NCBI GenBank assembly: GCA_963708605.1
Contig: CAVPTG010000004.1
Location: 250,900-314,899 of the forward strand
Direction: 5' to 3'
DNA length: 64,000 bases
DNA from: Candidatus Dormiibacterota bacterium
GTDB lineage: Bacteria > Chloroflexota > Dormibacteria > Aeolococcales > Aeolococcaceae
The notes under the pieces are model-generated. The model was given only the letters and a program-made list of their open reading frames with translations, did no database searches and was not told where the DNA came from. The position numbers and the translations under genes are program-made. Numbering within the stretch: the stretch's first letter is position 1; each line of letters opens with the position of its first letter. Shown here in pieces: positions 6,428 to 62,217 of the stretch.

Positions 6428-8474
6428 CTACAGGTCGACTCCGGCGCGGAGAACGGCGAGCACGCCGTCGCCGTAGCGCTCGAGTTTGGCGGGGCCGACG
6501 CCCGGGATGTTCGCGAGCGCTCCGGCGCTCGCGGGTCGCCGGTGCGCGATCTCGGCCAGCGTACGGTCGTGGAAGACGACGTACGGCGGCACCTCTGTGC
6601 TGCGTGCGACGCCCAGCCGCCAGCTCCGCAGTGCCTCGAAGCGCGCCGCCACTTCAGGTGTCATCTCGAGTGCGGTCGTCGATCCGCCGGCCGGTTTGCG
6701 GCCCCCGCTCACACGCACCTGTGACGTCGCACGGACGTCGACGTCGATCGCCTCCTCGCCGCGCAGCACCGCGCTGCCCCGTGGCGTGATCCCGAGGGTT
6801 GGCTTCTCACCGTGGCCACGACTGATGCATCCGAGCTCCACCAGGCGTTCCAGCAGCTCGCGAATCCGTTCCAGGTCCCAGCCGCGGAGCGCGCCGAACC
6901 ACTGCAGCTCCGTGACCCAGGACCGCGACGACGTCCACGCATCGGTACCACCGCGAAGGATCGAGGCGATCCGGACGCCACCGAGATGGCCGTCGAACCG
7001 CGCCACGCAGGCGAGCGCCGCATTCACCTGTGCGGTGTCCACGGGCGCGTACGCGGTGCGGTTGCTGTCGAGGCAGTTGTCGCACGCCATGCAAGTGCGA
7101 GCCACGCCGTGCTCGCCGAAGTAATCGGCGATGCGGGCGTGCCGGCAGCCTCGCGTGCCCGCATATTCCATGACCTGATTGACGCGCGCGTACGCGTTGG
7201 CCTTCAACACCGTCTGCTCGTCGAAATCAACCGGCGCCCCGGTGAGTCGCCGGATGCTGCCGTCGGCCTGGATGACCTCGGCTCTGCGGAGCAGGTCGAG
7301 CGCGGCGCGCGCGGCGTTGACCGCGACGCCCCGAGCCTGCCAGTCATCGATGGCGTCGCTGCCTTCGCGAAGCAACTCGCGATAGACAGAGCGGACGACG
7401 TCGCGCTCGGGATACGCCTGCTCGATGAAGAACTCCTGCAGCTGGCGGTCGGCCGGGCTGTAGAGGAGGATGCACTCCGAAGGCTCTCCATCGCGTCCGG
7501 CGCGCCCTGCCTGCTGGTAGTACTCCTCGAGGCTGCTCGGAAAATCGTGGTGGATCACCCGGCGGATGTCCGGGAAGTCCACGCCCATGCCGAATGCCGA
7601 CGTGGCGACGATTGCCTGCAGACGGCCCGCGGCGAACCGCTCGTGCACATCCTGCCGCGCGTCTCCGTCCACGGCACCGTGATAGGCGGCGACGGCGATG
7701 CCGGCGCCGGCGATCAGCTCGGTGACCTCGTCCGTCGTCCGTCTGCTCCCGCAGTACACGAGCGCTCGGCCCGCGTCCGGACGCACGAGGCGCAACAGCG
7801 CGTCGCGCTTGTCGGCCGCGCCGCGGCAGCGGATGACCGACATCGTGAGGTTCTCGCGCACGAATCCGGTGACCCGCTCGACCGGGGCGCTGAGCCCGAG
7901 GCTCGATGCGATGTCGGCGCGAACGCGCGGTGTCGCCGTCGCGGTGAAGGCGCCGACCGGCGGCCTGCCGCAAGCGGCGATGGCATCGCCGAGACGCCGG
8001 TAGTCGGGGCGAAAGTCATGGCCCCAGCTGGAGATGCAGTGCGCCTCGTCGACGATGAATCGATCCACGCTCAGCCTGCTCAGGCTGTCAAGGAAGCCGG
8101 AGGCGCCGAGCCGTTCGGGAGCGAGGTAGAGAAAACGGAGCTCGCCGGCGCCGGCCGCTCGCAGCGACTCGCTGCGGGTTGAGGCCGGCACCTGGCTGTG
8201 CAGGCACGCGGCGGGAACCCCGAGGGCGATGAGTTCGAGCGACCTGGTCGACCATGAGCGCGATCAACGGAGACACGACGATGGTCAAACCCCCGCCGGC
8301 GATCCCGGGGACCCAGTACGCGATGCTCTTCCCGGAGCCAGTCGGGGCCACGAAGAGCACGTCCGCGCGCGCCTCGGCTGCAGCGACGACGTCGGCCTGT
8401 CCCGGCCGGAAGTCCGCAAATCCGAAGGTCTGCTCGAGGACCGCACGAGCCCGAGGCGAGGGCTCGAGCGGCAT
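6428..8474 (-). CDS. recQ: ATP-dependent DNA helicase RecQ with HRDC domain (one apparent +1 frameshift at about 8234)
   Basis: FRPGQ, PTGSGKS, VVSPLIALM, VDEAHCISSWGHDFRPDY, TATAT, ATSAFGMGVD, YYQQAGRAGRDG, Zn site CR..C..CDNC, C-terminal HRDC. The two ORFs rejoin if one base of GAGTTC (8231-8236) is removed. Confidence 0.9.
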
Positions 8475-8885
8475 CAGCTCGCTGACTTTTCCAGCTTGAG
8501 CGCGCAGGAGTTCATGCAGAAGCGCTGGCCGGTCGGCTCGGGTCCGTCCGGGAAGACGTGGCCGAGGTGCCCGCCGCACTTGGCGCACCGGATCTCGGTG
8601 CGCGGGATGAGCATGCTCCAGTCCCGATGCTCCTCGACGACCCCGTTGCGAAGCGGCTCATAAAAGCTCGGCCAGCCGGTGCCGGAGTTCGAACTTGGTG
8701 TCGGAGCTGAACAGCTCGGCGCCGCAGCCGGCGCACGTGTAGACGCCCTTGTCGTTCACGTGGACGTACTGCCCGGTGAAGGGGCGTTCGGTGCTCGACT
8801 TGCGAAGCACGTTGTACTGCTCGGGCGTCAGACGCTGACGCCACTCGTCGTCGGTCAGGGTGACTTTCTCGTCCATGGTCTTCAC
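8474..8885 (-). CDS. msrB: Peptide-methionine (R)-S-oxide reductase MsrB (one apparent +1 frameshift at about 8688)
   Basis: [21 protein letters not shown], then [33 protein letters not shown] after removing one base of GAGTTC (8685-8690). The start overlaps the WYL gene stop (GTGA) and the stop overlaps the recQ start (TGATG). Confidence 0.9.
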
Positions 8886-9880
8886 TTTTTACCCCGTTTG
8901 GCAGGACTCGACGCATACAGTGCCGCGGCCGCCGCGTGGCTCTCCGCGATGTGGCGGCGCAGCGACTCGGGTTCGAGCACCTCGACGTTCGGACCCCATC
9001 GCATCAGCCATGGGCGCATCTCGACCTCGCCGGCCACGTCGAGGCGAACCTCGATGCCGCCCCCGGGAAGATCGGTTCGCCTGGCGTGCGCCGGCCAAGG
9101 GCTCTCGTCGACCCATTGGCGTGCCTCGGGGCTGAACCGCAGCACCACTCGATCCCCGCCGGCTCCCTGCCAGATCGCCCATGAGGCTCCGAGCACGGTG
9201 TCGATGTCGAAGTCGTCGGGCACCGCGAAGCTCGATGGGAGCAGCCGCGCCGCCCGGATCCGATCGAGCCGCAACGACCGCACCTCGTGCGACACCGAAT
9301 CGAGGGCGAAGACATAGATGTGCCGCCCCTCGGCTGTCGGCTGGATGAAGTAGGGGCGGAGATCGCGGCGGGTCTCGTTGCCCTTGGCGTCGACATATCG
9401 CACCTCGATCTCGCGATGGGTCACGAACCCGTCGATGACGGTGCGCTCGATCTTCAGGCGCTCGGCGTCGGCGGGCCGGCGTTCCGCTGCCGCCAACGTC
9501 CGGCGCAGGTACTCGCTCACCACCGGCACACTCAGCGCCCGGGACAGGTGGGCGAGGGCACCGACCAGTGCCGGGTCCTGTTCGGGGCGCACCTGCTGCA
9601 GGAGTTGCACCGCCACCAGGAGCAGCGTCGCCTGGTAATGGTCGAGCTGCAGGGGCGGGAGCAGGCTGCCCTTGCCGATGCGCCAGCGACCACCGGATTC
9701 CTCGACGTCGATACCGGCGTTGTCGCGCAGCGTCGCCACGTATCGCTGGACCGTGCGCGTGTTGACCTCGAGCTCCTCGGCAAGCTGCCGCGTGGTCAGG
9801 CCCACCTCGGTCTCGCAGAGGCGCGCGAACAGCTTGATGACCCGAAGCTCCTTCTCTCCCTTCTCGTAAACGCCTGGCAC
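8882..9880 (-). CDS. HTH-WYL-WCX transcriptional regulator (PafB/PafC/DriD-like)
   Basis: N-terminal HTH (LAEELEVNTRTVQRYVATL), WYL region (RDLRPYFI...IYVFALDSVSHEVRSLRLDRI), WCX tail (MRPWLMRWGPNVEVLEPESLR). The -10 TAGGCT lies 6 nt before the GTG. Confidence 0.9.
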   Translation of the reverse strand: MPGVYEKGEKELRVIKLFARLCETEVGLTTRQLAEELEVNTRTVQRYVATLRDNAGIDVEESGGRWRIGKGSLLPPLQLDHYQATLLLVAVQLLQQVRPEQDPALVGALAHLSRALSVPVVSEYLRRTLAAAERRPADAERLKIERTVIDGFVTHREIEVRYVDAKGNETRRDLRPYFIQPTAEGRHIYVFALDSVSHEVRSLRLDRIRAARLLPSSFAVPDDFDIDTVLGASWAIWQGAGGDRVVLRFSPEARQWVDESPWPAHARRTDLPGGGIEVRLDVAGEVEMRPWLMRWGPNVEVLEPESLRRHIAESHAAAAALYASSPAKRGKK

Positions 9881-9889
9881 GCAAGGAGC

Positions 9890-10417
9890 CTAGCGGGTCG
9901 TCCGGGCTTCCGAGTCGAGGGCAAGCGCATAACCGAGGAGCAGCGGCCCACCTTCTCGCTGCTGCGTCCCGGTCGGCTCGAAGCCAAGCTCCATGTAGAG
10001 CTGCTGCGCGCCGACCATGTTCGCTTCGGTGTCCAGCGTCATCACGCGCTTGCCACGGCGGCGAGCCATGTCGATGCAGGCGAGCATCAGGTGGCGGGCG
10101 ATGCCCCGGCCGCGGTGCTCGGGGCTGACGCCGAGCATGCGGATATGCGCTTCGCCGGCAGCCAGAGGATCGCTCGGGGCGGGACCGATCCGCGAATCGA
10201 GCTCGAGGGTGACCGAGCCGGCGATGACGCCCCGGTCGACGGCCACAAGAACCATCGACCGCTCGGCGCGGCTCCCGACGTCGGCGATCCGCGCCAGGTA
10301 CGGCTCCCAGCCGGGCTTGTCGGGCGTCCAGTACTCGCGGAACGCGCTCGCGGTGGCCGCCCCGACCGCCGTGTGCTCGGACGCCAGGAGCGGGCGGATC
10401 TCGATCTCATCGGACAC
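9890..10417 (-). CDS. GNAT family N-acetyltransferase
   Basis: IRMLGVSPEHRGRGIARHLM acetyl-CoA loop and AQQLYMELGF. GTG start at 10417, 7 nt after a TACGGT -10. Confidence 0.85.
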   Translation of the reverse strand: MSDEIEIRPLLASEHTAVGAATASAFREYWTPDKPGWEPYLARIADVGSRAERSMVLVAVDRGVIAGSVTLELDSRIGPAPSDPLAAGEAHIRMLGVSPEHRGRGIARHLMLACIDMARRRGKRVMTLDTEANMVGAQQLYMELGFEPTGTQQREGGPLLLGYALALDSEARTTR

Positions 10418-10471
10418 ATCCAAAACCGTACGCGACAGCCACCTGTCGCCGCCCCGGCGCATCGTCGTCGC

Positions 10472-10720
10472 ATGGACACACAGACTTCCGGCGCCGGCGA
10501 CCTCGGGATCACAGGTGATGGGCCCTACCTCCGGCGCGCGCAAGCGCTGCTTGCCGCTCGGGCCGAGCTCTTCGTCGCCGGGACGGCGCGTTCGATGCGG
10601 CTCGCCGGCTTGGCCGGCTCGCCGCAGGAGGAGGCTGCCGCGATCATGCGCCGGGGGCGGCAGCTGACCCTGCCGCTGCCGCGCGAACAAAGGCGCCGGC
10701 GAGCAAGGATGGTGCGCTGA
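10472..10720 (+). CDS. Small hypothetical protein (82 aa) with a QLTLPL motif near the C-terminus, translationally coupled to the TM0106 gene
   Basis: MDTQTSGAGD...IMRRGRQLTLPLPREQRRRRARMVR*. CATCGT -10-like element 6 nt upstream. Its TGA overlaps the next ATG (TGATG). It fills an otherwise empty 300-nt gap. Confidence 0.6.
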   Translation: MDTQTSGAGDLGITGDGPYLRRAQALLAARAELFVAGTARSMRLAGLAGSPQEEAAAIMRRGRQLTLPLPREQRRRRARMVR

Positions 10721-13700: not shown

Positions 13701-14184
13701 GGGCGACCGGGTCCGCTCTGATGCCGAGGCCGCGCGCGTGCGCGAGATCAGTGACCAGCTGACCATCGCAACGTGGCGGGACGCCACCGGCCACGAGCGC
13801 CGGATGACGTTCGAAGACATCGTTGTTGTCGCACCGTACAACGCGCAGGTCGCGTGTCTCGTCGAGGCGTTGCCGGTCGGCGCGCGGGTTGGCACCGTCG
13901 ATCGCTTTCAGGGACAGGAGGCCGCGGTGAGCATCTTCTCCATGGCCACGTCCAGCGTCGAAGACCTGCCCCGCAACCTCGAATTCCTCTTCAGCCTCAA
14001 CCGCCTCAACGTGGCCGTGTCCCGGGCGCGCGGACTTTCGATCCTGGTCTGCTCGCCCGAACTACTCCGCGCACGCTGCCACTCGCCGGAGCAGATGCGG
14101 CTCGTCAACGCGCTCTGCCGGTTTGTGGAGATGGCCGAACCTTGGATCGTCACGCCGGTGCCCGCAGCTATGCTGCCGGCGTGA
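10720..14184 (+). CDS. TM0106-family RecB/Cas4-like nuclease fused to an RNase H-like/DEDD domain and a C-terminal SF1 (Upf1/Dna2-like) helicase
   Basis: GRADFLL..DAK..QLCEY nuclease core; N-terminal Cys plus CNTCGFAPRC; FFDMEGD..HYAAYE..VDLY..SYSLKKVE..YNQRDC; helicase motifs QGPPGAGKT, DEAGQ, GDPRQL, RMHP, TVDRFQGQE, RLNVAVSRAR. Confidence 0.85.
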   Translation: MRFLHDGRPVFTATDLCDYLACGHLVALKRRVAAGESIPSDRSALSEVLANLGAGHEQRHLERLRARGQRVKAFEDERDRYASTAAELGALEAETVAAMGEGYDVIYQPTFFDGRWMGRADFLLRVDMPSARWGWSYEAADAKLARRVRSEAILQLCEYSAHLERLQGTAPPHMHVVLGDGSEHAYRLDEFSAYHANVKRDFELAMLVEETATYPDPVAHCNTCGFAPRCAAERKRDDHLSQVARMRSGQVVALTSTGISTMTALAELSRDADPPARMSITSFRELHAQAALQHRGPHAGGVPRHELLDAWEVGHGLCALPAPSPGDLFFDMEGDGLARDVPLEYLFGVVDTRGEYRAWWGHDEAGERLAFEGFVDFAIAQLERFPDMHVYHYAAYEKTALRRLMSRHGTREEEVDRLLRNEVLVDLYRVVRQGIRLSTDSYSLKKVERLYMPAREESIADAAGSMVMYERWLISREDGSTGNATLLDEIEMYNQRDCISTAQLRDWLEARRVEEEALRGAPIERPPIIERAVSDALQAKIVTTQEVAVALVTDLPADPEMRTGAERARSLLAPLLSYHRRENKVNWWRHFDQIAMSPEELERDTYALGPLEMIGSREDGRRIIERYRFEPQEHRIGIGDKPLDPEADVRWAPVAGEVLELDAARGEITLSRTPGQADRGAVRFLIPSTPLPTDAQEEALLDLGRWVAANGPDATGANRAGRDLLMRLPPRLHDGADLEFRGLGETASEAAIRLILGLDRGCLPVQGPPGAGKTHMAALAALALIKHRRGPIGVTAVTHNAIRTLLDKIEELAPSLGMQVRIQHRKGDGIGTASIQIARSNDAVEAALADEAVDVVGGTSWLFARRELQGSFDTLIVDEAGQMSLADALAVSRAARNLVLVGDPRQLAQPLQGSHPPGVGVSALEHLLGGNVTIPPDRGVLLDLTWRMHPAVTGFVSRSFYEGRLGSEAQCSRQAVVLDGVAVTGLRASFVEHEGDRVRSDAEAARVREISDQLTIATWRDATGHERRMTFEDIVVVAPYNAQVACLVEALPVGARVGTVDRFQGQEAAVSIFSMATSSVEDLPRNLEFLFSLNRLNVAVSRARGLSILVCSPELLRARCHSPEQMRLVNALCRFVEMAEPWIVTPVPAAMLPA

Positions 14185-14895
14185 CTGACGATTCCCTCAA
14201 GGACCGGCTCGTGCGGTCGCTCGTTGCCGCGCGCGAGCGGGAGGCTCTGCTCCTCGCTCTGGTGGACGACCCGCCGGCCGCCGAATATGGGCAATGGACC
14301 GCAAAAGACAACATCGCGCATCTCAACGCCTGGCGTCAACATGCCGTGCGCGCGCTCGTTGCTGCGCAGCAGGGGACCGCTTTCGAGGGGCCGGCCAATG
14401 ACACCGACCTCGACGCGCGAAATGCCGAGATCTACGAAGAGCATCGCGACGACAGCGCCGCCACCGTACGCACGACCGCCGTCGAGAGCTACACGGTGCT
14501 CATCGACGCGGTCATTGCGTGCTCCGACGCGGATCTGTTGCGCGAACGCCCTGACAATGGTGGGCCCGTGTGGCGCGTTGTTCCGGGCAACGGCCATGCT
14601 CATGTGGCCCAGCACCTCTCGTACTGGGCAGTCGCACACGCCGATCCCGTCGCGGCGGAGGAGGCCGCGAGGTGGAGTTACGCGATCGAACTCTGAGTTG
14701 TTCCCCGACAACCAGCCCATTGCCGACTACAACTTCGCCTGTTTCTACGCGCGCAACGGCGATGCCGACAGAGCCTTGCCGCTGCTCAGCACCGCGCTGC
14801 GCGCTCGTCCCGAACTTCGCGCTTTCGCGCTCGAAGATGCGGACATCGAGCCGATTCGCGACGACCCACGGGTGGAAAGCCTCATCGGCCCCTGA
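14181..14895 (+). CDS. DinB/ClbS-like four-helix protein with a C-terminal TPR-like repeat (one apparent +1 frameshift at about 14690)
   Basis: WTAKDNIAHLNAW DinB-type motif and GNGHAH. Removing one base of GAACTC (14688-14693) joins it to DYNFACFYARNGDADRAL...ALEDAD. The GTG overlaps the upstream TGA, and TATGCT lies 6 nt upstream. Confidence 0.65.
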
Positions 14896-14909
14896 GGGCG
14901 CAGCCTCAG
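14892..14909. terminator. Hairpin formed across the stop codons of two convergent genes
   Basis: CTGAGG-GCGCAG-CCTCAG includes both TGA codons. Confidence 0.3.
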
Positions 14910-15703: not shown

Positions 15704-15774
15704 GGCCGCATGGTGCATCAAGCAGCTCGACGAGCGGACTGCGCGCCTCCGGCTCCCTGCTACGCTCCTGTGCC

Positions 15775-22944: not shown

Positions 22945-24160
22945 TCAGTCCACGCAGTGTCTGGCGACCTCGTGGTGGTCCTGTAGGTACTCCCGGATCG
23001 CCATCAGCGCGGCGATGCCGTCGCCGACCGCAGATCCGAGCTGCTTCGTGGAGCCGCGGCGCACGTCGCCGGCAGCGAACACCCCGGGCATCGAGGTGGT
23101 GAAACCGCCTTTGTCGTCGACGAATCCGCGCCCATCGAGGTCGACGCTGCCGCGGAGGAATGCGGTGTTGGGGTCGAGCCCGATGAACACGAACGCCGCG
23201 CGCGGCGTGATCACCTGTTCCTCACCGGTGGCACGGTCTCGAATGCGTACCGACTCCAGATGTCCCTTGCCGGCGAGCTCGGTGACCTCGGTATTCCGAT
23301 GCACCACAAAGCGCGGGTCGTTGTTGATCTTGTCCTGGAGGAGGCGCGACGCGGTGAGCTCGGGCTCCCGCTGGACGATGCGGACTCGCTCGGCGAATTT
23401 GAGGAGGAAGAGAATTCTCCTCGAGCGCCGAGTTTCCGCCACCGATGACCAGAAGCTCCTCGGCGCCGCGGTAGAAGGGGCCGTCGCAGGTGGCGCAGAA
23501 ATGCACACCGGCGCCGATCAGGTCCTCCTCACCCGGGACGCCGAGACGCCGGTACGACGACCCGGTCGCGATCAGCACCGCATGGCTCTCGATCTCCTGC
23601 CCGCCGGCCAGTCGCAGGCAGATGTCGCCGGCCTCAGCACCCTCGGCGGTGACCTGATCGACGCTCACGGCGCTGAGCAATTCGACCTCGTAACGACGCG
23701 CCTGTGCGATGAATCGCTCGGCGAGGTCCGCACCGCCAACGCCTTCGGGGAAGCCGGGATAGTTGTCGATGCGCTCGGTGACGCCGGCCTGGCCGCCGAG
23801 CCCGCTGCGTTCGATCACCACGGCGTCAATGCCTTCTCGGGCCGCATAGATCGCGGCGGCGAGCCCGGCCGGGCCGCCGCCGATGATCGCGAGGTCGTAG
23901 CAGCTCCGCTTCGCCTCGAGGGTGAGCCCGAGCTTGCGCGCCAGCACCTCGTTGGTGGGATCGATGAGCACCTCGGAACCGTCGAAGACGACGGTCGGAA
24001 TCGTGCGGCCGCCCTGCTGCAGCTCCTCGACGTGCTTGAGCGCGACCGCGTCCTGGTCGATGTCGACCCAGTCGTAGGGCACGCGCTGCTCCGCGAGGAA
24101 TCGCTTCGCGCGCTTGCAGTCCGGGCACCACGGAGCGCCATAGACGGTGATCTGCGACAT
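22945..24160 (-). CDS. trxB: Glutaredoxin-like domain fused N-terminally to thioredoxin reductase (one apparent +1 frameshift at about 23414)
   Basis: N-terminal YGAPWCPDC...TIPTV; then IIGGGPAG, CATCDG, GGGNSALEE, FVFIGLDPNT, FAAGDV. The frames rejoin on removing one base of GAATTC (23412-23417). Confidence 0.85.
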
Positions 24161-28064: not shown

Positions 28065-30810
28065 ATGCCCGATGCCGAGCTCTCGGCTCCCGCCGAGCCC
28101 GATCCGGTCTCGTCCGGCTCCGCCACCCTGACCCTCCCGGCGGTGCCGCTTCGGGACAACGTCGTGTTCCCATCGCAGCTGGCGCCTCTGGCGGCCGGCC
28201 GGCCGCGCTCGGTCGCGGCCCTGGAGGCTGCAGTCAACGGCGACGGGCGGGTGGTCCTCGCCATCCAGCGCGACGCCGAGCGTGACGAAGCCTCGATCGA
28301 CGACGTGCATGCCATCGCGGTCATCGCCCACGTCGGCGCGTTCCGCCGGCTTCCGGGCAGCGGCGCGCATGCGCTCGTGGAAGGCAAGGAGCGCGTCCGC
28401 ATCGAGGCCTTCGACGCCTCCGGAGACGCGTGGATCGCCACCGTCACGCCGCTCCCACCCGAACCGGTCGAGGGCACCGAGGTGGACGCGTTGTTCGGAT
28501 CGGTCCGAACCCTGTTCGCCGAGTACGTCAACGCCGGCGCCCAGGTCGGCGCCGACACTGCGGTGGCGATGGCACGCGCGTCGCAGCCGGAGCTCATCGC
28601 TGACATCGCGAGCACCTGTCCGGACTTCGGATTCGACGATCGCGTCGCCCTCCTCCAGGAGACCGACACGCTGGTCCGCCTTCGCAAGCTCGTCCCACTG
28701 CTCGCCCGCGAAGTCGAGGTCGCCCAGCTGCGCAGCAAGATCCACGAAGACGTCCAGAAGACCATCAACAATTCACAGCGCGAGCACATCCTCCGCGAGC
28801 AGCTCCGCGCCATCCGCAAGGAACTCTCCGAGCTCGATGACGCCGGCGAAGACGACGAAGACCTGAGCGCCCGCGTCGAGAAGGCGGGCATGCCCGACAA
28901 CGTCAAGCAAAGGGTCCTGAAGGAAGTCCATCGCCTCGAGCAGATCCCCAGCGCCTCCCCGGAGATGGGCATGGTCAGGACCTGGGTCGACTGGCTCCTC
29001 GACCTCCCATGGATTGACCCACCCGCCGAAACCCTCGACATCGAACGCGCCGCCGCCATCCTCGACGAAGACCACTACGGCCTCACAAAGGTGAAGGACC
29101 GCGTCCTCGAATGGCTGGCGGTCCGGGACCGGATCCGTGTGAAGGCGACAGCAGAGGCCGAATCGGCAGTGGCGCAGGCGACCAAGAACGAAGCTGACGC
29201 GGCCCCCGAAACGGCCAGCCAGGTAGATGGCGCCGCGACAGCGAATGGAACGACCACCCAGGAGGCGGGTGGCGGCACGGGGGGCGGCGCCGACCTGCTG
29301 ACCGGCGCCGCGCAAGACGGTCCCAGAACGCAAGACGACGAGGAGTCAGACCGGGCAGCTGAGCGGCGAGGGGACCCCGTGCCGACAGGACCCGCCGCAC
29401 ACGCGACCGCTAGTCCGAAGCGCAGAACGCTGCAGACCCCGATCCTGTGCTTTGTCGGCCCACCAGGCGTCGGCAAGACATCGCTCGGCCGCTCAATCGC
29501 CAGAGCCCTCGACCGCAAGTTCGTGCGGATGAGCCTCGGCGGCATCCGCGATGAGGCCGAGATCCGTGGTCATCGCCGGACGTATATCGGTGCGTTGCCC
29601 GGACGGATCATCCAGTCGATGCGGACGGCGGGGACGCGGAATGCCGTGATCATGCTCGACGAGATCGACAAGGTCGGTGCTGATTTCCGCGGTGATCCGT
29701 CGGCGGCATTGCTCGAGGTGCTGGATCCTGAGCAGAACTGGGAATTCAGTGACCACTACCTCGAGGTTCCGTATGACCTTTCGCAGGTGCTGTTCATCAC
29801 CACGGCGAACATTGTCGACACGATCAGTCCGCCACTTCGCGATCGCATGGAGATCATCCGCATCACCGGGTACACCGAGCAGGAGAAGGTGCAGATCGCA
29901 GAGCGGCATCTGGTGCCGCGCCAGCTCGATCAACATTCGCTCGACGCGGGTGAGCTGCAGATTCCGCGCGAGACCATCGTCGCGATGCTGCACGGCTACA
30001 CACGCGAAGCCGGCGTCCGCCAGCTCGATCGCACCATCGCCGAGGTCGCGCGCAAGGTGCCGCGGAAGCTCGCGGCTGGGGAGACGCCTCCCGTGGTCAT
30101 CACGCCGGAGGACCTCTCGGATCTGCTCGGTCCGCGACGGCACGACTATGGCGAAGCGCACGAGCAGGACGAGATCGGTGCGGTGACAGGCGTGGTGGTC
30201 AGTGAGGTGGGCGGCGACATCGTGACCGTCGAGGCGCTCGCCATCGAGACAAAGCCCGAGCTCGTGCTGACCGGTCAGCTCGGCAGCGTGATGGAGGAAT
30301 CGGCCCGTGCAGCACTGTCGTGGGCGAAGGTCCACGCAGTCGAGTACGGTGCGCCCCGGGACTTCTTCGATACGTCATGCGATCCACGTGCACGTGCCGG
30401 CAGGCGCCATCCCCAAGGACGGACCCTCCGCGGGCGTGACCATGGCCACTGCGATGGTGTCGGTGGCGTCAGGACGGCGCGTGCGCCGCGATCTCGCGAT
30501 GACCGGTGAGGTGACCCTGCGGGGCAAGGTACTTCCCATCGGTGGCGTGAAGGACAAGCTGCTCGCAGCGCACCGTTCGGGCTTGAAGACCTTCATCCTG
30601 CCGGCGAAAAACATGCGTGACCTGTACGAGATCGAAAAGGAAATCCTCGACGCCATCGAGGTCGTCCCGGTGGACAACGTGGGCGAGGTTCTCGACCGCG
30701 CACTGGTCGAGTCGGACGCGCCACGCCGGCGTGAGCGCCACGGTGCGGGATTCGTGCTGCCGATCACGGCCTCTGACGTCCTGGGCCCGATCAACGCCAA
30801 CCCCGCCTAA
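28065..30810 (+). CDS. lon: Lon protease (LonA) with a ~95-aa insertion before Walker A and one apparent +1 frameshift at about 30375
   Basis: LON N-domain (VPLRDNVVFP), DEDHYGL, GPPGVGKT, LDEIDK, PKDGPSAG catalytic Ser and GGVKDK Lys. Length 2746 = 3n+1. The -10 TATTCT lies 6 nt before the ATG. Confidence 0.9.
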
Positions 30811-39067: not shown

Positions 39068-39563
39068 TTGCTTCATCTGCGTTTCGCACCTGGCGTCGAC
39101 CGCGGGTCGACACCGACGGCAGGCAGCGTCGACGACGTCCCATTCGAACCACTGGTTCGGCGTCTGCGCATCCGCCGCGGCGGACCCCGGACACCGCTGC
39201 CGCTGCTGCCGGTGATCGCGGTCGCCGCGGGCATCGGTATCGCATACGTCAACCAGACCGCGCACGTCACCACAGACACGTACCAGGCGACGCGTCTCGC
39301 CGCGCAGCAACAGCAGCTCGTCGCACAGGACTCGCAGCTCAACGCTGAGCTTTCGCGAACTCGAGGCGTCTGAGCGGATCATCGCCGCCGCGCAGCACAT
39401 GGGGATGCGCCCCGCGACGAGATGGGCGCAGGTCGTGGCTGCGCCGCACGGCGTGATCACGTCACCCCCGGAGCAGCTCACCGGGAGCGTCACCAGGAGC
39501 GCGTTGCAGCAGCTGGTCGGAGCGCTCGACGGCGCCTTCGCCGGGAGCGGCACGGGTCGATGA
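39068..39563 (+). CDS. ftsL: FtsL-like bitopic coiled-coil protein (one apparent +1 frameshift at about 39359)
   Basis: Position between rsmH and ftsI, a single TM (LLPVIAVAAGIGIAYV), a heptad region, and LEASERIIAAAQHMGMRP after removing one base of GAACTC (39357-39362). The stop overlaps the ftsI ATG. Confidence 0.7.
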
Positions 39564-51922: not shown

Positions 51923-52040
51923 AGCGGTCACGCCGGCGTCCCCTGGGAGATAATCGGCGCGGCCCCGTGCGGCCGCCACGTCTCACCACACGTCTCAGCC
52001 TGCGTCATATGCAACGTCTTCACCGCACCGAGCACGTCCC

Positions 52041-53162: not shown

Positions 53163-53175
53163 CCGAGCGGCACTC

Positions 53176-54066: not shown

Positions 54067-54086
54067 GGTGAGCACCATGCTACGGT
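54063..54086. promoter_or_regulatory. Overlapping divergent promoters with an 18-bp palindrome
   Basis: GCATGGTG-AG-CACCATGC (54063-54080). Minus-strand -10 TAGCAT (54082-54077) and plus-strand extended -10 TG-C-TACGGT (54078-54086). Confidence 0.55.
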
Positions 54087-54093
54087 CCGAGAA

Positions 54094-55138
54094 ATGCTCG
54101 CGGCGTATGCGTCGGCGGTTGGCGGCGACGACCCACTCGCCAACCTGACGGTCGGCGACCTGCCGGCACCCGACCCGCAGCCCGGCTGGGCGCGCGTCAG
54201 GATGCGCGCCGCGTCGCTCAACCACCACGACATCTGGACGCTGCGCGGGGTGTCGTCGGCACCCGTGACCCCGCCGCAGATCCTCGGCTGCGACGCCGCC
54301 GGCGAGGTCAACTCCTACGGAGGCGAGCCACCCCCCGGTGCTCCGCCGGTGGGCGCCCGGGTCGTCGTCTATCCGATCATCACGTGCGGCCGCTGTCCGG
54401 CCTGCCTCACCGACGAGCCACTCGGATGCCGGTACTTCCGCATGCTCAGCGAGGCGCCGCTCGCCGGGGCGCTCGCCGAGTACGTCGAGATCCCGGCCGC
54501 GAACCTCGTGCCGCTGCCGGCCCAGGTGGCCTTCGCCGACGCTGCATGCCTGCCCACCGCCTACCTGACCGCATATCGCGCCCTCTTCATCCGGGCCGGG
54601 CTCCGGCCCGGGATGAACGTCCTCGTGCAGGGTGCGACGGGGGGTGTGGCGACGGCGTGCATCCTGCTCGGCCGCCTCGCCGGCCTCACCGTGTATGCGA
54701 CCTCGCGCGACGAGGCGAAGCGCGCGTTCGCAGTCGACCTCGGCGCCGAAGCCGCCTTCCCGGTCGAGCGCGACACCACGCGCGCGGTCATCGGCGCGAC
54801 TGGCGGCCTGGGCGTGGACGCCGTGATCGACACCGTCGGCGAGCCGACCTGGGACCTGAGCCTCCGGTCGGTGCGACCGGGCGGTGTCGTGGTCGTCCCG
54901 GGCGCGACCGGTGGACCCGAATCCCCCGGCGCAGCTCAACCGGATCTTCTTCCGCAGCGTCACCGTTGCCGGTACCACCATGGGAACGCGAGGGGAGTTG
55001 CGCCGGCTCGTGGATCTCACGGCGACGGGGGCGCTGCGGCCGCTCATCGGCTCGACGCACCCGCTCCACGACGCGGCGATCGCGTTCGCCGAGATGGTCG
55101 ATGGCGACCTGCGAGGCAAGATCGTCCTCGAGGCGTGA
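54094..55138 (+). CDS. Zn-binding alcohol dehydrogenase/quinone oxidoreductase (MDR family; one apparent +1 frameshift at about 54917)
   Basis: ASLNHHD, ILGCDAAG, CGRCPAC, GATGGV, VIDTVG. PNPPAQLNRIFFRS...GTTMGT...GKIVL follows after removing one C next to GAATC (54919-54923). Confidence 0.85.
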
Positions 55139-55190
55139 GCCGTCGGCGGCACCAGGTGGCCTGGTGAGCACGTCGATTTTGAGGATTGCG

Positions 55191-55219
55191 TAGACGCGAT
55201 CGACAAGCGGTGTTACGGT
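55191..55219 (+). promoter_or_regulatory. Sigma70-type promoter upstream of the structured element
   Basis: -35 TAGACG (55191-55196), 17-nt spacer, extended -10 TG-T-TACGGT (55211-55219). Confidence 0.6.
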
Positions 55220-55224
55220 TGCGC

Positions 55225-55440
55225 AGCTTCGGCGGTCCATGCAGACCGCGGCGCACAGGGCCTCGTCCAGAAGGTGCAGTGGCGAGGCCCTGTCCGTGTC
55301 TTCAGGAATTGGTGGAGACGCGTGATCCCGCCGTCCGGGATTGGAGCCGCAACTGCCTCCGAAAGGGCGCCAGACCTCTCAATGACAACCAACATGTTGT
55401 GGCATACTGGGCCGGCGAACCCAGCATCTTGCGGTTTTGC
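55225..55440 (+). ncRNA. Unassigned structured RNA candidate (independent ncRNA or ftsA leader)
   Basis: At least 7 stems, several with G-U pairs that work only on the plus strand; a promoter directly upstream; no convincing ORF; no family recognised. Confidence 0.5.
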
Positions 55441-55495
55441 GCCTGAAAACCCTTGAACGGCGCACCCGCGACGGCTACACTCGGAGACCTAGACA

Positions 55496-56733
55496 GTAAC
55501 TCGTCCTCGCCGCGTCTTCGCACTCGATCTCGGAACGACCAAAGTCTGCTGCGCTGTCGCAGATCTTGAGAGCACCGGTCTCCGAAGTCTTGGGCGTCGG
55601 CATGGTCGCGTCGCGGGGGGTGCGCAAAGGAGCGGTCGTCGAGATCGACCGGGCCGCGGAGGCCGTCGCCGAGGCCGTGGACATGGCCGAGCAGATGTCG
55701 GGCGTTCCCATCGACTCCGCCGTGGTTGGGATCGCGGGGGGTCACATCACCTCCCAGAACAGCCGGGGCGTCGTCGCCGTGGAAGCCGGTCATCGCGAGG
55801 TCCGCGACCAGGACGTGCACCGGGCCATCGACGCGGCGCGCGCGGTGAGCGTGCCGTCCGAGCGGCGCATCGTGCACGTCCTGCCCCAGCAGTTCACGAT
55901 CGACGGGCAGGAGGGCGTGCGTGACGCCATCGGCATGGCGGGCAATCGAACTCGAGGTCGATGCGCACATCATCACCGGCGCCAACACCGCGATCCAGAA
56001 CGTCGTCAAGGTGGTGCACAAGGCCGGGCTCAGCGTCGACGACATGGTGCTGCAGGTGCTCGCGTCCGCTGAAGCGGTGGTCACCGAGGACGAGATCGAG
56101 CGCGGCGTCGTGGTCGTCGATGTCGGCGGTGGGACCAGCGATATCGCGGTGTTTGCGCGCGGCAGCATCGTGCACACGAGCGTCATCCCGGTCGGTGGCA
56201 ATCACGTGACCGCGGACCTCGCGGTCGGGCTGCGCTGCGACCTCGAGACCGCTGAAACCGTCAAGCGAAACTTCGGTCACTGCCTCCAGTTGACGCTCCC
56301 CGCCGACGCGGAGGTGACCCTGACGCCGATGGGCTATGACGAGCCGGTCGGTGTGCCACAACGCTATCTCGCCGAGATCATCGGTCCGCGCGCTCGGGAG
56401 ATGGCTTCGTTGATCGCCGCGGAGGTCGAGCGCGCCGGCCCGCTCGGGATGTTCCCGGGTGGCATCGTGATCACCGGTGGCGGCGCGCTGCTTCGCGGAT
56501 TTGCCGAGGTGGTGCAGCAGCAGACCAACCTTCCCGCGCGGGTCGCTGCACCGCAGGGATTGCACGGCATGAACGACGAGATCCGCGGCCCGAGCCACGC
56601 CACGGTGGTCGGGCTGCTGCGCTGGGGAGCCCGGAGCAACCTCGGCCGCAAGCCGTCCCGCTCCAACGGAAAGAGCTCGGACGGCCCCGCCGCCGGGATC
56701 AAACTCTCGAGGTGGTTTCGTGACCTCTTTTGA
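55496..56733 (+). CDS. ftsA: Cell division protein FtsA (start reads GTA, probably GTG; two apparent +1 frameshifts at about 55586 and 55950)
   Basis: [60 protein letters not shown]. Length 1238 = 3n+2. Confidence 0.9.
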
Positions 56734-56845
56734 TCATCTGCGCACCCATGGACTCGACCAGCCGGGAGACGCACTGGCACGACGGCGGTCGTCGCCCCAC
56801 TCGCCCCCAAACCGAGAAATGACAACCCAACGCGAGGAGAAAGGC

Positions 56846-57952
56846 ATGGCAGACCTCGACCGGACACTTGACGGCAACGCCCGCATCCGCGTCGTGGGGG
56901 TCGGCGGCGGCGGCAGCAATGCCGTGAACCGCATGATCCGGAGCAACCTCAAAGGCGTTGAGTTCATCGCCATCAACACCGACCACCAGGCGCTCAGCTC
57001 ATCGTCCGCGCATCTCAAGATCCGCATCGGCGGCAAGCTGACGCGCGGACTGGGCGCGGGTGGTGATCCGCAGAAGGGTCAGGACGCGGCCGAGGAGTCC
57101 CGTGACGAGTTGACCAAGGCCCTCGCCGACAGCGACATGGTGTTCATCACGGCGGGGATGGGCGGCGGGACGGGCACCGGCGCTGCACCGATCATCGCGG
57201 AGATCGCGCGTGAGTCGGGTGCGCTGACGATCGGTGTGGTCACCAAGCCGTTCCGCTTTGAGGGTCTGCGCCGCCAGAAGTCGGCCGAGGAGGGAATAGC
57301 GAACCTCCAGGGCAGGGTCGACACGCTGATCACCATCCCGAACGAGCGGCTCATGCAGGTGGTCGACAAGAAGACGCCGATCGGCGACGCATTCAAGGTT
57401 GCCGACGACGTGCTGCGCCAGGGCGTGCAGGGCATCAGCGACCTGATCGTCTTTCCGGGGCTGATCAACCTCGACTTCGCGGACGTCAAGACGATCATGC
57501 AGGGCCAGGGGCAGGCCCTCATGGGCATCGGCTTCGGAAGCGGCGACACGCGCGCCGCGGACGCCGCCAAGGATGCGGTCGCCAGCCCGCTGCTCGAGAC
57601 CACGATCGCCGGAGCCAAGGGGATCCTTCTCAACGTCACCGGCGGCCCGGACCTCACCCTCTACGAGGTGAACGAGGCCGCGCAGCTGGTCAGCGAGTCG
57701 GCCGATGCCGATGCGCAGATCATCTTCGGGACGGTCATTGACGAGCACATGAAGGGCGAGGTGAAGATCACCGTCATCGCCACCGGGTTCACCGGTCAGA
57801 TCGATGTCATCGGCACGCTCAGCTACGAGCCGTCAGCCCGGCCGATGGTCTCCGACCAGCGGCAGCCGGCGTTCAACGTCGGGGGGAAGCCCAGCGGCCC
57901 GTACAGCGTCGACGACCTGGACATCCCGGCGTTTCTGAGGGACCGTCGGTAG
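56846..57952 (+). CDS. ftsZ: Cell division protein FtsZ
   Basis: [29 protein letters not shown]-terminal LDIPAFLR. Confidence 0.98.
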
Positions 57953-57967
57953 GTTTGGGTCCGGTGG

Positions 57968-57998
57968 AGCTCCGGCCGCGATCGCGCCGGCCGGAGCT
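57968..57998 (+). terminator. GC-rich hairpin after ftsZ (terminator or stability element)
   Basis: AGCTCCGGCC / GGCCGGAGCT 10-bp stem with an internal GCGATCGC; no U-tract. Confidence 0.45.
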
Positions 57999-58025
57999 GC
58001 ATCCCAAGCCACCAGGGGGCAGCAG

Positions 58026-58566
58026 GTGAAGTGCCCGTTCTGCGGCGAGACGGACATCAAAGTCGTCGAACTCGCGCGATTCCGAGACCGGTGAGGCGAT
58101 TCGCCGCCGTCGAGAATGCCTCGGCTGCAGCAAGCGTTTCACCACCTACGAGCGCGTCGAGGTGCCACCGCTCTACGTCCTCAAGAAGGACGGACGGCGC
58201 GAGGAATTCAGCCGCCCCAAGCTGCTGTCTGGCCTGGTGATGGCGTCCAAGAAGACGCGCCTCGCTCCCGCGAACCTGGAGATGATGGTTGCGGAGATCG
58301 AGAACGCCCTCCGCAGTCAGAACATCTCCGAGATCCCGAGCCGTGAGGTCGGCGCCATGGTGATGGCGCGGCTCCGCGACATCGACGAGATCGCGTACAT
58401 TCGATTTGCTTCGGTCTATCGATCGTTCAAGGACGCCCAGGAGATGCGCGCAACCATCGAGGATGTTCTGGCACATCCTCCGGGCACCCGGCCCGATACC
58501 GCCCGCCGCCCGCGGAAGCGGCGCGCCCCGGAAGGCCGCGAGTTGCCACTCGATCTCGGCAAGTAG
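58026..58566 (+). CDS. nrdR: Transcriptional repressor NrdR (one apparent +1 frameshift at about 58070)
   Basis: MKCPFC, V(D)SR, IRRRREC..C..RFTTYER, ATP-cone KKDGRREEF, AYIRFASVYRSF. The frames rejoin on removing one base of GAACTC (58068-58073). Confidence 0.93.
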
Positions 58567-58567
58567 G

Positions 58568-59269
58568 ATGCCGATCGTGGAGGAGGTGCCGGTCGCGGAC
58601 CGGCTGGGAGCGATCCGCGCTCGGATCGACGCAGCCGTTCGGCGCGCCGAGCGGGATCCGGAAGAGGTGCGCCTGATTGCCGTGACCAAGGGCGTGGCCG
58701 CCGCTCGCGTCGACGAGGCGATCGCCGCCGGGGCCGAGGATGTCGGCGAGAACCGCATCCAGGAGGCCGCAGAGAAATACCCTGAGGTGCGCAACGCCGC
58801 GCGCTGGCATCTGATCGGCCACCTCCAGACCAACAAAGCGGGACGCGCGGCGGCGCTCTTCGATTTCGTCCACTCGGTCGACAGCAAGCGCATTGCCAGT
58901 GCGCTCTCGGCACATCGGCCCGCGGGACGTGATCCGATCGGCGTGCTCGTCGAAGTCGAGCTGACCGGCCTGCCGGCGCGTTCCGGCGTCGCGGAGTCCG
59001 ACGTCGAGGCGCTCGTCCAGGAACTCGTCAATGTCCCGTCCATTCACGTGATGGGACTCATGACGATTGCACCCTTCTCGCAGGATCCCGAGGACGCGCG
59101 GGCGACCTTCACCCGCCTCCGGCATGTTCGTGATCATATGGAGCACGTGACCGGGTGGGCGCTTCCGGAGTTGAGCATGGGGATGAGCAACGATTTCGAA
59201 GTCGCCATCGAGGAGGGCGCCACCATGGTGCGCATCGGCCGGGCGATTTTCGGCGAACGCACGGAATAG
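58568..59269 (+). CDS. yggS: PLP homeostasis protein YggS/PLPBP
   Basis: LIAVTK, GENRIQE, WHLIGHLQTNK, HSVD, GLMTI, LSMGMSNDFEVAIEEGATMVRIG. Confidence 0.95.
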   Translation: MPIVEEVPVADRLGAIRARIDAAVRRAERDPEEVRLIAVTKGVAAARVDEAIAAGAEDVGENRIQEAAEKYPEVRNAARWHLIGHLQTNKAGRAAALFDFVHSVDSKRIASALSAHRPAGRDPIGVLVEVELTGLPARSGVAESDVEALVQELVNVPSIHVMGLMTIAPFSQDPEDARATFTRLRHVRDHMEHVTGWALPELSMGMSNDFEVAIEEGATMVRIGRAIFGERTE

Positions 59270-59318
59270 CGGCTCCCGGCAGTTCGGGAGCGAACGATCT
59301 GCCGGTATCCTTGAAGCG

Positions 59319-62217
59319 ATGCCCAGGTATTCGGCCGTCAGCGCGCGCGCGGGTTTCCCCGAGGCGGAGCTCGAGATTCTCCAGCTCTGGCAGCGCACCC
59401 ATGTCTTCGAACGCAGCCTCGAGATGCGTCGCAACGCGCCCCCCTACGTCTTTTACGAGGGGCCACCCACCGCCAACGGCCTCCCCGGTCTGCACCACGT
59501 GCTCGCGCGCTCCTACAAGGACGTCTTCGCACGCTACAAGCAGATGACCGGCTTCTCGGTTGCTCGAAAGGCTGGTTGGGACACTCACGGACTCCCCGTC
59601 GAGCTCGAGGTCGAGCGTGCGCTGAAAATCAGCGGCAAGAAGCAGATCGAGGAGTTCGGCATCGCGGAGTTCAACGCGCGCTGCCGGGCATCGGTGAACG
59701 AGTACATCGACCAGTGGCGGGAGATGAGCGAGCGTCTCGGTTTCTGGCTCGACTTCGACCACCCATATCGAACCTATGACGGCACCTACATGGAGTCGGT
59801 GTGGTGGAGCCTGAAGGAGCTCTGGGACGACGACATGCTCTACCAGGGGTACAAGGTCACTCCGTACTGCCCTCGATGCCAGACAACCCTGTCGTCGCAC
59901 GAGCTGAGCCAGGGATATCGCGAGGACACGCCGGATCCATCCATCTACGTCAAGTTCCGGCTCAACAACTCCGACGGGAAGACGTTCTTCCTCGCCTGGA
60001 CGACCACGCCGTGGACGCTGCCCGGCAACGTGGCGCTGGCAGTGCACTCGCGCAAGCCATACGTCCGGGTTGCGCAGGGCGACGAGTCGTACATCCTCGC
60101 CCGAGAGCGCCTTTCCATCCTTGACGGCGACTACGAGATCGTCGAGGAGATGGATGGATCTGATCTCGTCGACCTGACCTACGAGCCGCTCTTCACCGAC
60201 ATGCTTCCCGAGGGCCTCGCGTTCGTGGTGCTCGACGCCCCCGAGCTGGTGAACATGGACGAGGGCACCGGCATCGTCCACACCGCTGCGGCGTACGGTG
60301 TCGCCGACCTCGAGCTGTGCCAGCGCATGGGGGTCGCGATCCGCCACGTCGTCGGGCTCGACGGCCGTTTCCTCGACGAACAGACGCGATACCGCGGCAT
60401 GTTCGTCAAGGACGCCGATCCGAAGATCATCGAGGACCTGCGCGAGCAGGGGAGCCTCTATCGCGCCGAGACCATCCTGCACACCTATCCGTTCTGCTGG
60501 CGGTGCGAGACGCCGCTGCTGTACTACGCGGTCACGTCCTGGTTCATCCGGACCACCGCGGTGAAAGGCCGTCTGCTCGCGCACAACCGAAGCGTTCGCT
60601 GGCAACCTGCGCACATCCGCGACGGGCGGATGGGCAACTGGCTCGAGAGCCTCATCGACTGGAACCTGTCGCGCAGCCGCTACTGGGGGACGCCACTGCC
60701 GATCTGGGTCTGCGATGCATGTGACGAGAAGTTCTGCGCCGGAAGTGCCGCCGATGTCGGCCTGACGGTGGACGACGACCTGCACCGTCCGTTCATCGAC
60801 GAGGTCACGGTGCCCTGCAAGGCGTGCGCCGGCGTCATGCGGCGCGTCCCCGACGTCATCGACGCCTGGTACGACTCCGGCGCGATGCCCTACGCGCAGA
60901 AGCACTATCCCTTCGAGAACAAGGAGCTGTTCGAGCACACGCACCCCGCCGACTTCATCTGCGAGGGGGTCGATCAGACGCGCGGCTGGTTCTTCTCGCT
61001 GCTCGCCGAGTCGACGCTGCTCTTCGATCTGCCGGCGTACCGGAACTGCGTCGTCGTGGGCACCCTGCAGGACAAGCAGGGCAAGAAGATGTCGAAGTCG
61101 CGGCGCAACACCATCGAGCCGAGCACGATCTTCGACCAGTTCGGCGCCGACGCGGCGCGCTGGTACTTCTACGCACAGGGAGTCGAGAACGCCGAGCTGC
61201 GTGTCAGCCCCACGTCGTTCCAGGACGTCGTGCGCCTGTTCATGCTGACGCTCTGGAACGTCTACTCGTTCTTCGTGACCTACGCGCTCACCGAGGGATA
61301 CGATCCCGCGTCAGCCGCTCCGGCCGTGCTCGAGCGGCCGGTGCTCGATCGCTGGGCTCTCTCCCGGCTCGACGAGACCGTCGTGGCGGTGCGCGAGGCG
61401 ATGGAGCGGTACGACGCCTCGGACGCCGTCCATGCCGTCGAGGGATTCGTTGAGGATCTCTCGAAGTGGTACGTGCGGCGCTCGCGCCGCCGCTTCTGGA
61501 AGAGCGCCGGCACCAGCGATGATGCGCAGGCGGCGTTCGCCACCCTGCAGACGGTACTCCTGACGCTTGCGGGCCTGATCGCGCCGTTCATGCCATTCAT
61601 GGCCGAGCGCATGTACCGCAACCTGACCGGGTTCAACGGCGATCCGCCCGCGGCAGCGGGCGTTCCCGAACTCGGTCCACCTCACCGACTACCCGAAGGT
61701 GGTCGGTGCGTGGCGTGATCCCGACGTGCTGGTGGAGATGAGTCGCCTGCGCAGGCTGGTGGAGGATGGGCTCGCCGCGCGCACCGTCGCCGGCGTGCGG
61801 GTCCGTCAGCCGCTCGCGAGCGCGACCATTGCGAGCGATCCGCTCGCCCCCGAGCTCGAGGCGATCTTCATGGAGGAGCTCAACGTCAAGGGTGTGCGCT
61901 ATGTCGACCCGGCCGGTGAACATGCGTCGGTGGTCTTCGACACCACGATCACCGACGAGCTCCGCCTCGAGTGGCTCGCGCGCGAGGTCAGCCGCAAGGT
62001 GAACGAGCTGCGCAAGCAGGCGGGACTCCGCGTGGAGGATCGCATCACGATCCTCGTGGATGCCGATGGCGATGTGCGGCGCGCGGTCGACGCGCACCGC
62101 GAATGGCTGCAGGCGGAGACTCTCGCGGTCGCGATCGAAGATCGGCGCGACCAGGCACTCGCGGAGTGGCAAGGCGAGCTGGGAGGTGCTCTGTGCTGGC
62201 TGGGAGTACAGCGGTAG
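59319..62217 (+). CDS. ileS: Isoleucyl-tRNA synthetase, type 2, with GxHH motif (one apparent +1 frameshift at about 61670)
   Basis: EGPPTANG, GLHH, GWDTHGLP, WTTTPWTLP, GTGIVH, WNLSRSRYWG, EGVDQTRGWF, KMSKS. The frames rejoin on removing one base of GAACTC (61668-61673). Confidence 0.95.

Follow-up and report, generated by a model that had tools for sequence, protein, structure and literature searches.

The window analysed here is a stretch of 64,000 nucleotides from a public soil metagenome-assembled genome (MAG) assigned to Candidatus Dormibacteria (in GTDB a class within Chloroflexota), and it holds, among others, recQ, msrB, lon, ftsA, nrdR, ileS and a gene in the ftsL position of a dcw cluster. 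We scanned the whole window in two independent ways, with tblastn using the ORFs of relatives and by counting net indels in tiled blastn. Within coding DNA, both recovered the same eleven window-specific one-base insertions that break a reading frame, and no further indel of this kind, in agreement with the count of the original prediction (Table 1). To check each site, we aligned the window with syntenic DNA from five same-genus genomes (G007, G010, G011, G015 and G018), and at all eleven it is one base longer than relatives. The nine hexamers in which an extra base had been predicted were all found at their places, and at most of the eleven sites at least one relative has an exact GACTC or GAGTC. 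The insertion words in the window are GA[A]CTC (seven times), GA[A]GTC (once) and GAATTC (once), and two insertions lie outside any GANTC.

Table 1. One-base insertions in the window and the corresponding DNA of same-genus relatives (square brackets, extra base; hyphen, base absent from the relative).
Gene	Positions	Strand	Window	Relatives
recQ	8231..8236	-	GAGTTC (other strand GA[A]CTC)	one base fewer in G015, G011, G018
msrB	8685..8690	-	GAGTTC	one base fewer in three relatives
DinB_2/DUF1706-family gene	14688..14693	+	GAACTC	GA-CTC in G015, G018
glutaredoxin-thioredoxin-reductase-like gene (trxB)	23412..23417	-	GAATTC	one base fewer in three relatives
lon	30373..30377	+	extra T in ACG[T]CATG, about 30375	one base fewer in five of five
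gene in ftsL position of dcw cluster	39357..39362	+	GAACTC	G-ACTC in G015; one base fewer in G007, G010, G018
zinc-ADH-family oxidoreductase	54913..54923	+	extra A about 54915 (GG[A]CCC)	one base fewer in five relatives
ftsA, first break	55584..55589	+	GAAGTC (GA[A]GTC)	one base fewer in all five; G-AGTC in G007, G010, G018; G-AGTG in G015, G011
ftsA, second break	55948..55953	+	GAACTC	one base fewer in all five; GA-CTC in G011
nrdR	58068..58073	+	GAACTC	GA-CTC in G007, G010, G015, G018
ileS	61668..61673	+	GAACTC	one base fewer in all five; GA-CTC in G015, G007, G018

Pfam domains are interrupted at the insertion sites. The RecQ DEAD domain is found in two pieces (profile 1-64 and 83-162), both pieces of the gene being matched by a single ORF of G011, and Pyr_redox_2 of trxB is also in two pieces (1-156 and 161-291). 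The SelR match in msrB covers profile positions 1-48 of 116, the ADH_zinc_N match of the oxidoreductase 1-89 of 129, and the zinc ribbon match of NrdR 15-42 of 42, its first 14 profile positions being missing. In the DinB_2/DUF1706-family gene, the Pfam match lies on the upstream piece and the frame switches at 14692/14693. The gene in the ftsL position, which switches frame at 39341/39342, had no match in the Pfam search, and its name rests on its place in the dcw cluster; no alignment was obtained for G011 here. Single ORFs of relatives run across further breaks: the Lon ORF of G011 follows frame 3 as far as 30374 and picks up in frame 1 at 30376, the IleS ORF of G011 matches frame 3 and then frame 1 (the aligner put the gap in G011 about 7 nt upstream of the site), and the FtsA ORF of G015 matches frame 2 and then frame 3 at the first ftsA break, while at the second the FtsA match moves from frame 3 to frame 1. 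Without its extra base, msrB has GACTC on the gene strand, according to our own reading of the aligned DNA. The motifs LEVDAH, VDSR and PDSVHL, quoted in the original prediction, are present in the intact orthologues of the relatives.

The GAACTC and GAGTTC hexamers make up 0.34% of the window, which contains 171 GANTC sites in total, and since seven of the eleven indels lie inside these hexamers (P for at least seven = 1.6e-15), chance is excluded. The lon insertion has no GANTC close by, as had been noted. The oxidoreductase insertion had been said to abut a GAATC; this word is indeed nearby, at 54919-54923, with the extra A 4 nt upstream of it. The trxB GAATTC is the sole GAWTC-type site among the eleven.

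The insertions could in principle be real, the genes being either genuine pseudogenes or subject to programmed +1/-1 recoding, a reading for which nothing speaks beyond the deposited sequence. Against it, about 150 genes would be broken in the genome, including ileS, ftsA, lon and nrdR, always through the insertion of a single base in one and the same hexamer, on either strand relative to the gene, although the orthologues are intact in other species. Furthermore, the nrdR site has the same GAACTC in G011, meaning that a sister assembly repeats the error and that, were it a mutation, it would have arisen at the identical site in another species. We therefore regard real insertions as hardly credible.

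We then examined the whole genome for the same footprint. Among the GAACTC/GAGTTC hexamers, 179 of 1925 (9.3%) are at +1 frame switches, compared to a background of 1.4% (p = 6e-85), which provides the enrichment that the original prediction had expected genome-wide. Conversely, one of these hexamers lies within 20 nt of 111 of the 296 strict +1 frame switches, where 6.5 would be expected. Once these switches are removed, the top hexamer is GAAGTC (17 against 3.2 expected), with a weaker excess than GAACTC; the +1-switch rate is 9.3% for the GACTC strand versus 2.4% for the other. No excess over background was found genome-wide at GAATTC (4/344) or GAAATC (10/693), and hence the footprint is that of GASTC, a subset of GANTC: the predicted motif holds for GACTC/GAGTC and fails for the two other words, and the GAATTC of trxB is at most a rare event. 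Deletion-type frame switches had no associated motif anywhere in the genome. The base doubled is nearly always the A of GACTC, which yields GAACTC; the A of GAGTC is doubled less often, yielding GAAGTC. An extra base is present at roughly 4% of the GASTC sites over all of the genome's contigs. The favoured context is TC-GACTC-G, and the rate rises to 10.8% in CGACTCG and 16.6% in TCGACTCG. A per-site "delete one base" likelihood test put the excess at a comparable level, about 146 sites, over a high background of about 8%, which is due to gene junctions. There was no bias for the gene strand (96 to 83) or the contig strand (97 to 82), and insertion events were found on 18 of the 19 contigs; the absence of events from contig C16 (P = 0.03, uncorrected among 19 contigs) is not significant.

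Substitution errors at GASTC were also considered and rejected. GASTC is less dense in the window's genome (G000, 1.17 per kb) than in its relatives (about 1.6 per kb), and more GASTC words of the relatives are missing from the window than the other way round, with what looks like a surplus of A-to-C changes at the A that could be methylated. These differences are, however, ordinary divergence, many being shared with other relatives, and 33 of the 49 inspected were synonymous and 13 were conservative Ser-to-Ala changes; a stricter test restricted to sites conserved in all relatives retained 8 sites, too few to have any power. There was no clear signal of GASTC avoidance, the observed/expected ratio being 0.76 in G000 and 0.91-0.94 in G015 and the fragmented same-genus assemblies.

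The footprint depends on assembly and lineage, and follows the assembly rather than the biology. Judging the sequencing platform of each assembly from its contiguity alone, we found GAACTC sites at +1 switches in some highly contiguous assemblies of the same genus (18/168 in G041, 7/118 in G003 and 4/38 in G011), whereas pooling the fragmented ones gives background level (4/211; Fisher p = 4e-5 versus G000). As the footprint is present in some contiguous assemblies and absent from fragmented ones, it points to assembly errors. Together with the lack of the extra bases in relatives, this upholds the view that the genes are not pseudogenes and that the errors are tied to a motif. G015 has none (0/139), and two contiguous MAGs of unrelated soil bacteria (one also with a GC content of 67%) gave 0/110 and 2/112.

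These comparisons bear on whether any DNA modification is involved. The basecaller or polisher might simply mishandle the GACTC k-mer in a GC-rich context, which would account for the few percent of GASTC sites affected, the variation of the rate with the flanking bases, the sparing of GAWTC, and the clean record of G015, a genome that has both methyltransferases described below. Such a bias would nevertheless be expected in the two unrelated soil MAGs, if they were sequenced with the same chemistry, and these have no footprint; in addition, the published motif-bound errors are linked to methylation (PMC12710330). A pure k-mer artefact thus appears improbable.

A search of the genome, which is 80% complete, for DNA methyltransferases found two genes, both on contig C12 and both encoding beta-class N6/N4 enzymes (PF01555), and no matches to PF02384, PF02086 or PF00145. 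M1 (301 aa) has the catalytic motif DPPFNTG followed by AGSGTTG, and M2 (259 aa) has DPAYSG followed by CGSGSSG; both thus have the beta-class order, with the catalytic motif before the SAM-binding FxGxG, and an N6-adenine-type catalytic motif. All aligned orthologues keep the catalytic motifs unchanged, and the SAM-binding motif varies little (GSAS in M2 of G011 and G009). Their neighbours are housekeeping genes (MMPL, Methyltransf_11, acyl-CoA dehydrogenase and MaoC hydratase), with no nuclease gene in the neighbourhood of either. The search proposed in the original prediction, for a beta-class N6-adenine methyltransferase with or without a cognate endonuclease, thus yields two candidates. 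Both genes are kept in 40 of the 41 genomes of the genus, and because they are nearly universal, an attempt to assign the enzyme by presence and absence across the genus failed. G015 carries both at about 90% identity, yet has no footprint, which would fit with a different platform or polishing.

Judging by their sequences, neither M1 nor M2 is a CcrM orthologue. They score 73.2 and 78.1 bits, respectively, against the NCBIfam CcrM equivalog NF050803, for which the cut-off is 830, and both lack the 83-aa C-terminal domain of CcrM, their alignments ending near residues 261-265 of 6PBD. A residue-by-residue comparison with CcrM, which covered M2, looked at the recognition residues of loop-2B and loop-45 (R44, N124, F125 and R129) and at W109, whose roles have been described (PMC13092597): in M2 these positions hold V (R44), D (W109), a gap (N124), G (F125) and Y (R129). 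M1 is closer to M.RsrI and the YhdJ-type model.

The modification could also be real and written by another enzyme, encoded in the 20% of the genome that the assembly lacks, belonging to a family outside those searched, or forming part of a type IIS GAGTC restriction-modification system like PleI, MlyI or N.BstNBI. The incomplete genome leaves room for such a gene, the footprint is an asymmetric GAGTC/GACTC word with a stronger GACTC strand, and the ratio of 0.76 in G000 points the same way. On the other hand, assemblies of several congeneric species share the footprint, which fits the core M1/M2 genes better than a mobile restriction-modification system, there is little GASTC avoidance in the clean genomes of the genus, and the families searched yielded no further methyltransferase; for a type IIS system in particular, no restriction endonuclease gene lies next to M1 or M2. 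Another writer is therefore rather unlikely, if less so than a basecalling artefact.

In summary, the frameshifts are consensus errors of a single-molecule assembly, most likely nanopore to judge from its contiguity, rather than mutations, and probably arise from a base modification at GASTC that would be written by M1 and/or M2. The modification would most simply be N6-methyladenine, in GASTC or in a motif of the GANTC type; the modified base would distort the signal, such that a basecaller or polisher untrained on it calls an extra A, and the putative writer would be one or both of the orphan-looking enzymes M1 (motif DPPF) and M2 (motif DPAY). The footprint would fit GANTC methylation and GASTC-only methylation alike, but with methylation at every GANTC the lack of a footprint at GAWTC would require a strongly context-dependent error.

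About 150 genes are thus falsely split in this public MAG, including ileS, ftsA, lon, nrdR and recQ, with further false splits in G041, G003 and G011, among other sister assemblies. In an uncultured lineage accessible through MAGs only, this leads to lower completeness estimates, false pseudogenes and false "missing" functions, and flagging any +1 frame switch at GAACTC/GAGTTC catches most of these false splits. The footprint also hints at a conserved adenine-methylation motif with two candidate orphan methyltransferases, as a lead and not a finding.

In nanopore assemblies of bacteria, errors are known to gather at methylated motifs, GANTC among them, and become fewer with methylation-aware models (PMC12710330); errors at GANTC and restriction-modification motifs occur in agrobacteria (PMC12710330) and at GANTC/CcrM sites in Brucella (PMC12392509). 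Like these, the errors described here fall on one short motif overlapping a known methylation target, survive polishing, affect a fraction of the sites and are absent from presumed short-read assemblies. Unlike the errors in the cited papers, which are mostly substitutions, they are frame-breaking one-base insertions in the GASTC half of GANTC. Similarly to CcrM and M.HinfI (6PBD), M1 and M2 belong to the beta class (PF01555) and have the catalytic motif D-P-x-aromatic; like CcrM in Alphaproteobacteria, they have no adjoining nuclease gene and are conserved across their lineage, and M2 retains the LQLG stretch of loop-2B. They depart from CcrM in their low NF050803 scores and in the lack of its C-terminal domain.

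GANTC methylation outside the Alphaproteobacteria would be no first, having already been described in lake Chloroflexi (PMC6329791), and GAWTC/GADTC methylation in SAR11 and Rhizobiales shows that enzymes can discriminate the middle base (PMC8919816). Those motifs came from SMRT kinetics and cloned enzymes, whereas the GASTC seen here is an error footprint and may reflect the basecaller; what the cases would share is GANTC-type N6-methyladenine beyond the cultured Alphaproteobacteria. It is tentatively conceivable that GASTC or GANTC adenine methylation by the conserved, orphan, non-CcrM enzymes M1/M2 extends across the genus as an independently evolved, lineage-wide mark, possibly with a GASTC sub-specificity complementing the GAWTC of SAR11. 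If so, a methylome would have been read out by accident through assembly errors.

We compared the window (G000:C4:250900-314899, in an assembly of 3.02 Mb, 19 contigs and 67% G+C with an estimated completeness of 80%) with the syntenic DNA, 40-66 kb long, of five congeneric genomes (G007, G010, G011, G015 and G018); the comparison set comprised more than 40 species-level genomes of this genus. All nine hexamers named in the original prediction were found where it had placed them, and the eleven one-base insertions said to split ten genes were borne out by alignment to same-genus DNA, in which the window has one extra base relative to its relatives at 11/11 sites. For the GAAGTC site and six of the seven GAACTC/GAGTTC sites, GACTC or GAGTC is found at the exact position in one or more relatives. 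For msrB (8685), the relatives have GAGTTGAAC, and a reading of the aligned DNA showed that the window, minus one base, encodes the usual MsrB motif over GACTC. Two independent whole-window scans, one by tblastn with the relatives' ORFs and the other for net indels in tiled blastn, each recovered exactly eleven window-specific frame-breaking coding indels, while all further flags from both scans fell outside coding sequence, at gene junctions or at errors of G011's own. Single Pfam domains are interrupted at the insertion sites, and the conserved motifs LEVDAH, VDSR and PDSVHL are present in the intact orthologues. Several small indels relative to all relatives were also seen in the conserved non-coding DNA that separates the oxidoreductase gene from ftsA (see table), and were left out of the frameshift count as lying outside coding DNA.

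Seven of the 11 indels in the window fall within GAACTC/GAGTTC hexamers (P = 1.6e-15). The trxB event at GAATTC, one of three indels outside GASTC (GACTC/GAGTC), is unlikely to be due to chance (P = 0.006), and the error rate at GAWTC, the other half of GANTC, may be lower by at least about 40-fold. In summary, the broken genes are not pseudogenes, in agreement with the original proposal; the errors are motif-bound, and the window frameshifts are no real genomic feature.

Frame switches across G000 were located by a seven-state Viterbi frame path, using a codon model trained on G000 itself; the strict set (n = 296) consisted of same-strand +1 (insertion-type) switches with an upstream frame open for at least 12 nt. 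GAACTC/GAGTTC lies within 20 nt of 111/296 of these switches, against 6.5 expected, and deletion-type switches showed no motif genome-wide. Counted by site, 179 of 1925 GAACTC occurrences (9.3%) have a nearby +1 switch, compared to 1.4% overall (p = 6e-85), and no other stop-codon-free hexamer among the 2080 strand-merged ones has a high +1-switch rate. GAAGTC is mildly raised (37/1563 at +1 switches, p = 0.004) and becomes the top hexamer once the GAACTC events are taken out (17 vs 3.2 expected). The proposal of GANTC-bound errors thus holds in that indels are enriched at the motif genome-wide, but it was too broad: because GAACTC and GAAGTC are enriched, while GAATTC (4/344) and GAAATC (10/693) have background-level +1-switch rates genome-wide, the footprint is that of GASTC and not of the whole of GANTC. 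Errors occur at about 150 of roughly 3700 GASTC sites and on 18 of the 19 contigs, with a rate that depends on context (10.8% for CGACTCG and 16.6% for TCGACTCG) and with neither a gene-strand nor a contig-strand bias found genome-wide.

The density of GASTC is 1.17 per kb in G000 and about 1.6 per kb in sampled same-genus DNA, the density of GAWTC being the same in both (about 1.5 per kb). Insertion errors account for only about a tenth of this GASTC gap, and avoidance of the motif is absent in clean same-genus genomes. Substitution-type errors at GASTC were considered and rejected, the apparent asymmetries in the window being ordinary synonymous divergence.

We then expressed the footprint in other assemblies as GAACTC sites at a +1 switch over all GAACTC sites; we infer the sequencing platforms from contiguity only. 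Within the genus, the ratio was 18/168 in G041 (one contig), 7/118 in G003 (three contigs), 4/38 in G011 (20 contigs), 5/164 in G018 (one contig) and 0/139 in G015 (20 contigs), and six fragmented assemblies (50-190 contigs) gave a pooled 4/211 (Fisher p = 4e-5 against G000). Since the footprint varies by assembly, an artefact is indicated. At the nrdR site, an identical GAACTC is also present in G011. Two unrelated soil MAGs with long contigs gave 0/110 (G055, a Microflora-Danica-style delta-proteobacterium) and 2/112 (G053, Chloroflexia, 67% GC). A generic k-mer bias fits this lineage dependence less well than does a lineage-specific DNA modification.

The syntenic locus of G011 has many frameshifts of its own away from GAACTC (about 17 junctions with G011 queries only); this assembly is more error-rich, with errors partly of another type. 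In G008, a sister species in five contigs, FtsZ is split between two open frames, probably another long-read frameshift error. The G053 segment listed in the table has no GAACTC footprint; near +1 switches were GAATTC 3/28 and GAAATC/GATTTC 5/57, against a background of roughly 2.4%, and GAWTC observed/expected is 0.76, so that G053 may carry a GAWTC-type footprint.

Nanopore assembly errors gather at methylated motifs, GANTC among them (PMC12710330; see also PMC12392509), and shrink with methylation-aware basecalling (PMC12710330). The phenomenon is an already known artefact. GANTC m6A is known outside Alphaproteobacteria, including in lake Chloroflexi (PMC6329791), and GAWTC or GADTC sub-specificity exists among CcrM relatives (PMC8919816). 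Methylation is a plausible cause of the GASTC-bound errors, with both the modification and the platform being ones that we infer.

A beta-class methyltransferase had been expected elsewhere in the genome, and a PF01555 (N6_N4_Mtase) profile search of G000 gave two genes for beta-class DNA methyltransferases, M1 and M2, both on contig C12; searches with PF02384, PF02086 and PF00145 gave zero matches in G000.

Coordinates of the two methyltransferase genes and of other loci discussed
Feature	Coordinates	Strand	Length	Description
M1	G000:C12:109667-110569	minus	301 aa	DPPFNTG ... AGSGTTG
M2	G000:C12:106902-107678	minus	259 aa	DPAYSG ... CGSGSSG
M1-M2 interval	G000:C12:106902-110569			Methyltransf_11 gene and acyl-CoA dehydrogenase between M1 and M2, 2.8 kb apart
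Non-coding stretch	window 55144-55500			several small indels
G008 FtsZ	G008:C1:116645-117875			open frames for residues 1-327 and 325-410
G053 segment	G053:C1:100001-300000			GAWTC-type counts

Both genes are present in 40/41 same-genus genomes (76-92% identity, constant spacing of about 2.8 kb), with catalytic motifs conserved across the orthologues. The DPAY motif of M2 is unusual and is invariant across all aligned orthologues. M1-like genes (55-70% identity) occur in 38/121 genomes of the wider phylum, and M2 was not found at any of the four loci checked beyond the genus. The neighbouring genes encode MMPL, Methyltransf_11, acyl-CoA dehydrogenase and MaoC hydratase proteins; none of them is a nuclease gene. 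M1 and M2 look like candidate orphan, core methyltransferases.

M1 is closest to M.RsrI and a YhdJ-type model, and M2 to the methyltransferase chain 8URK (specificity unstated) and CcrM. Judged by sequence, M1 and M2 are not orthologues of CcrM: they score 73-78 bits with the NCBIfam CcrM model, whose cut-off is 830, and the CcrM C-terminal domain is missing from both. M2 lacks all five of the CcrM residues R44, W109, N124, F125 and R129, whose roles have been described (PMC13092597), but retains the LQLG of CcrM loop-2B.
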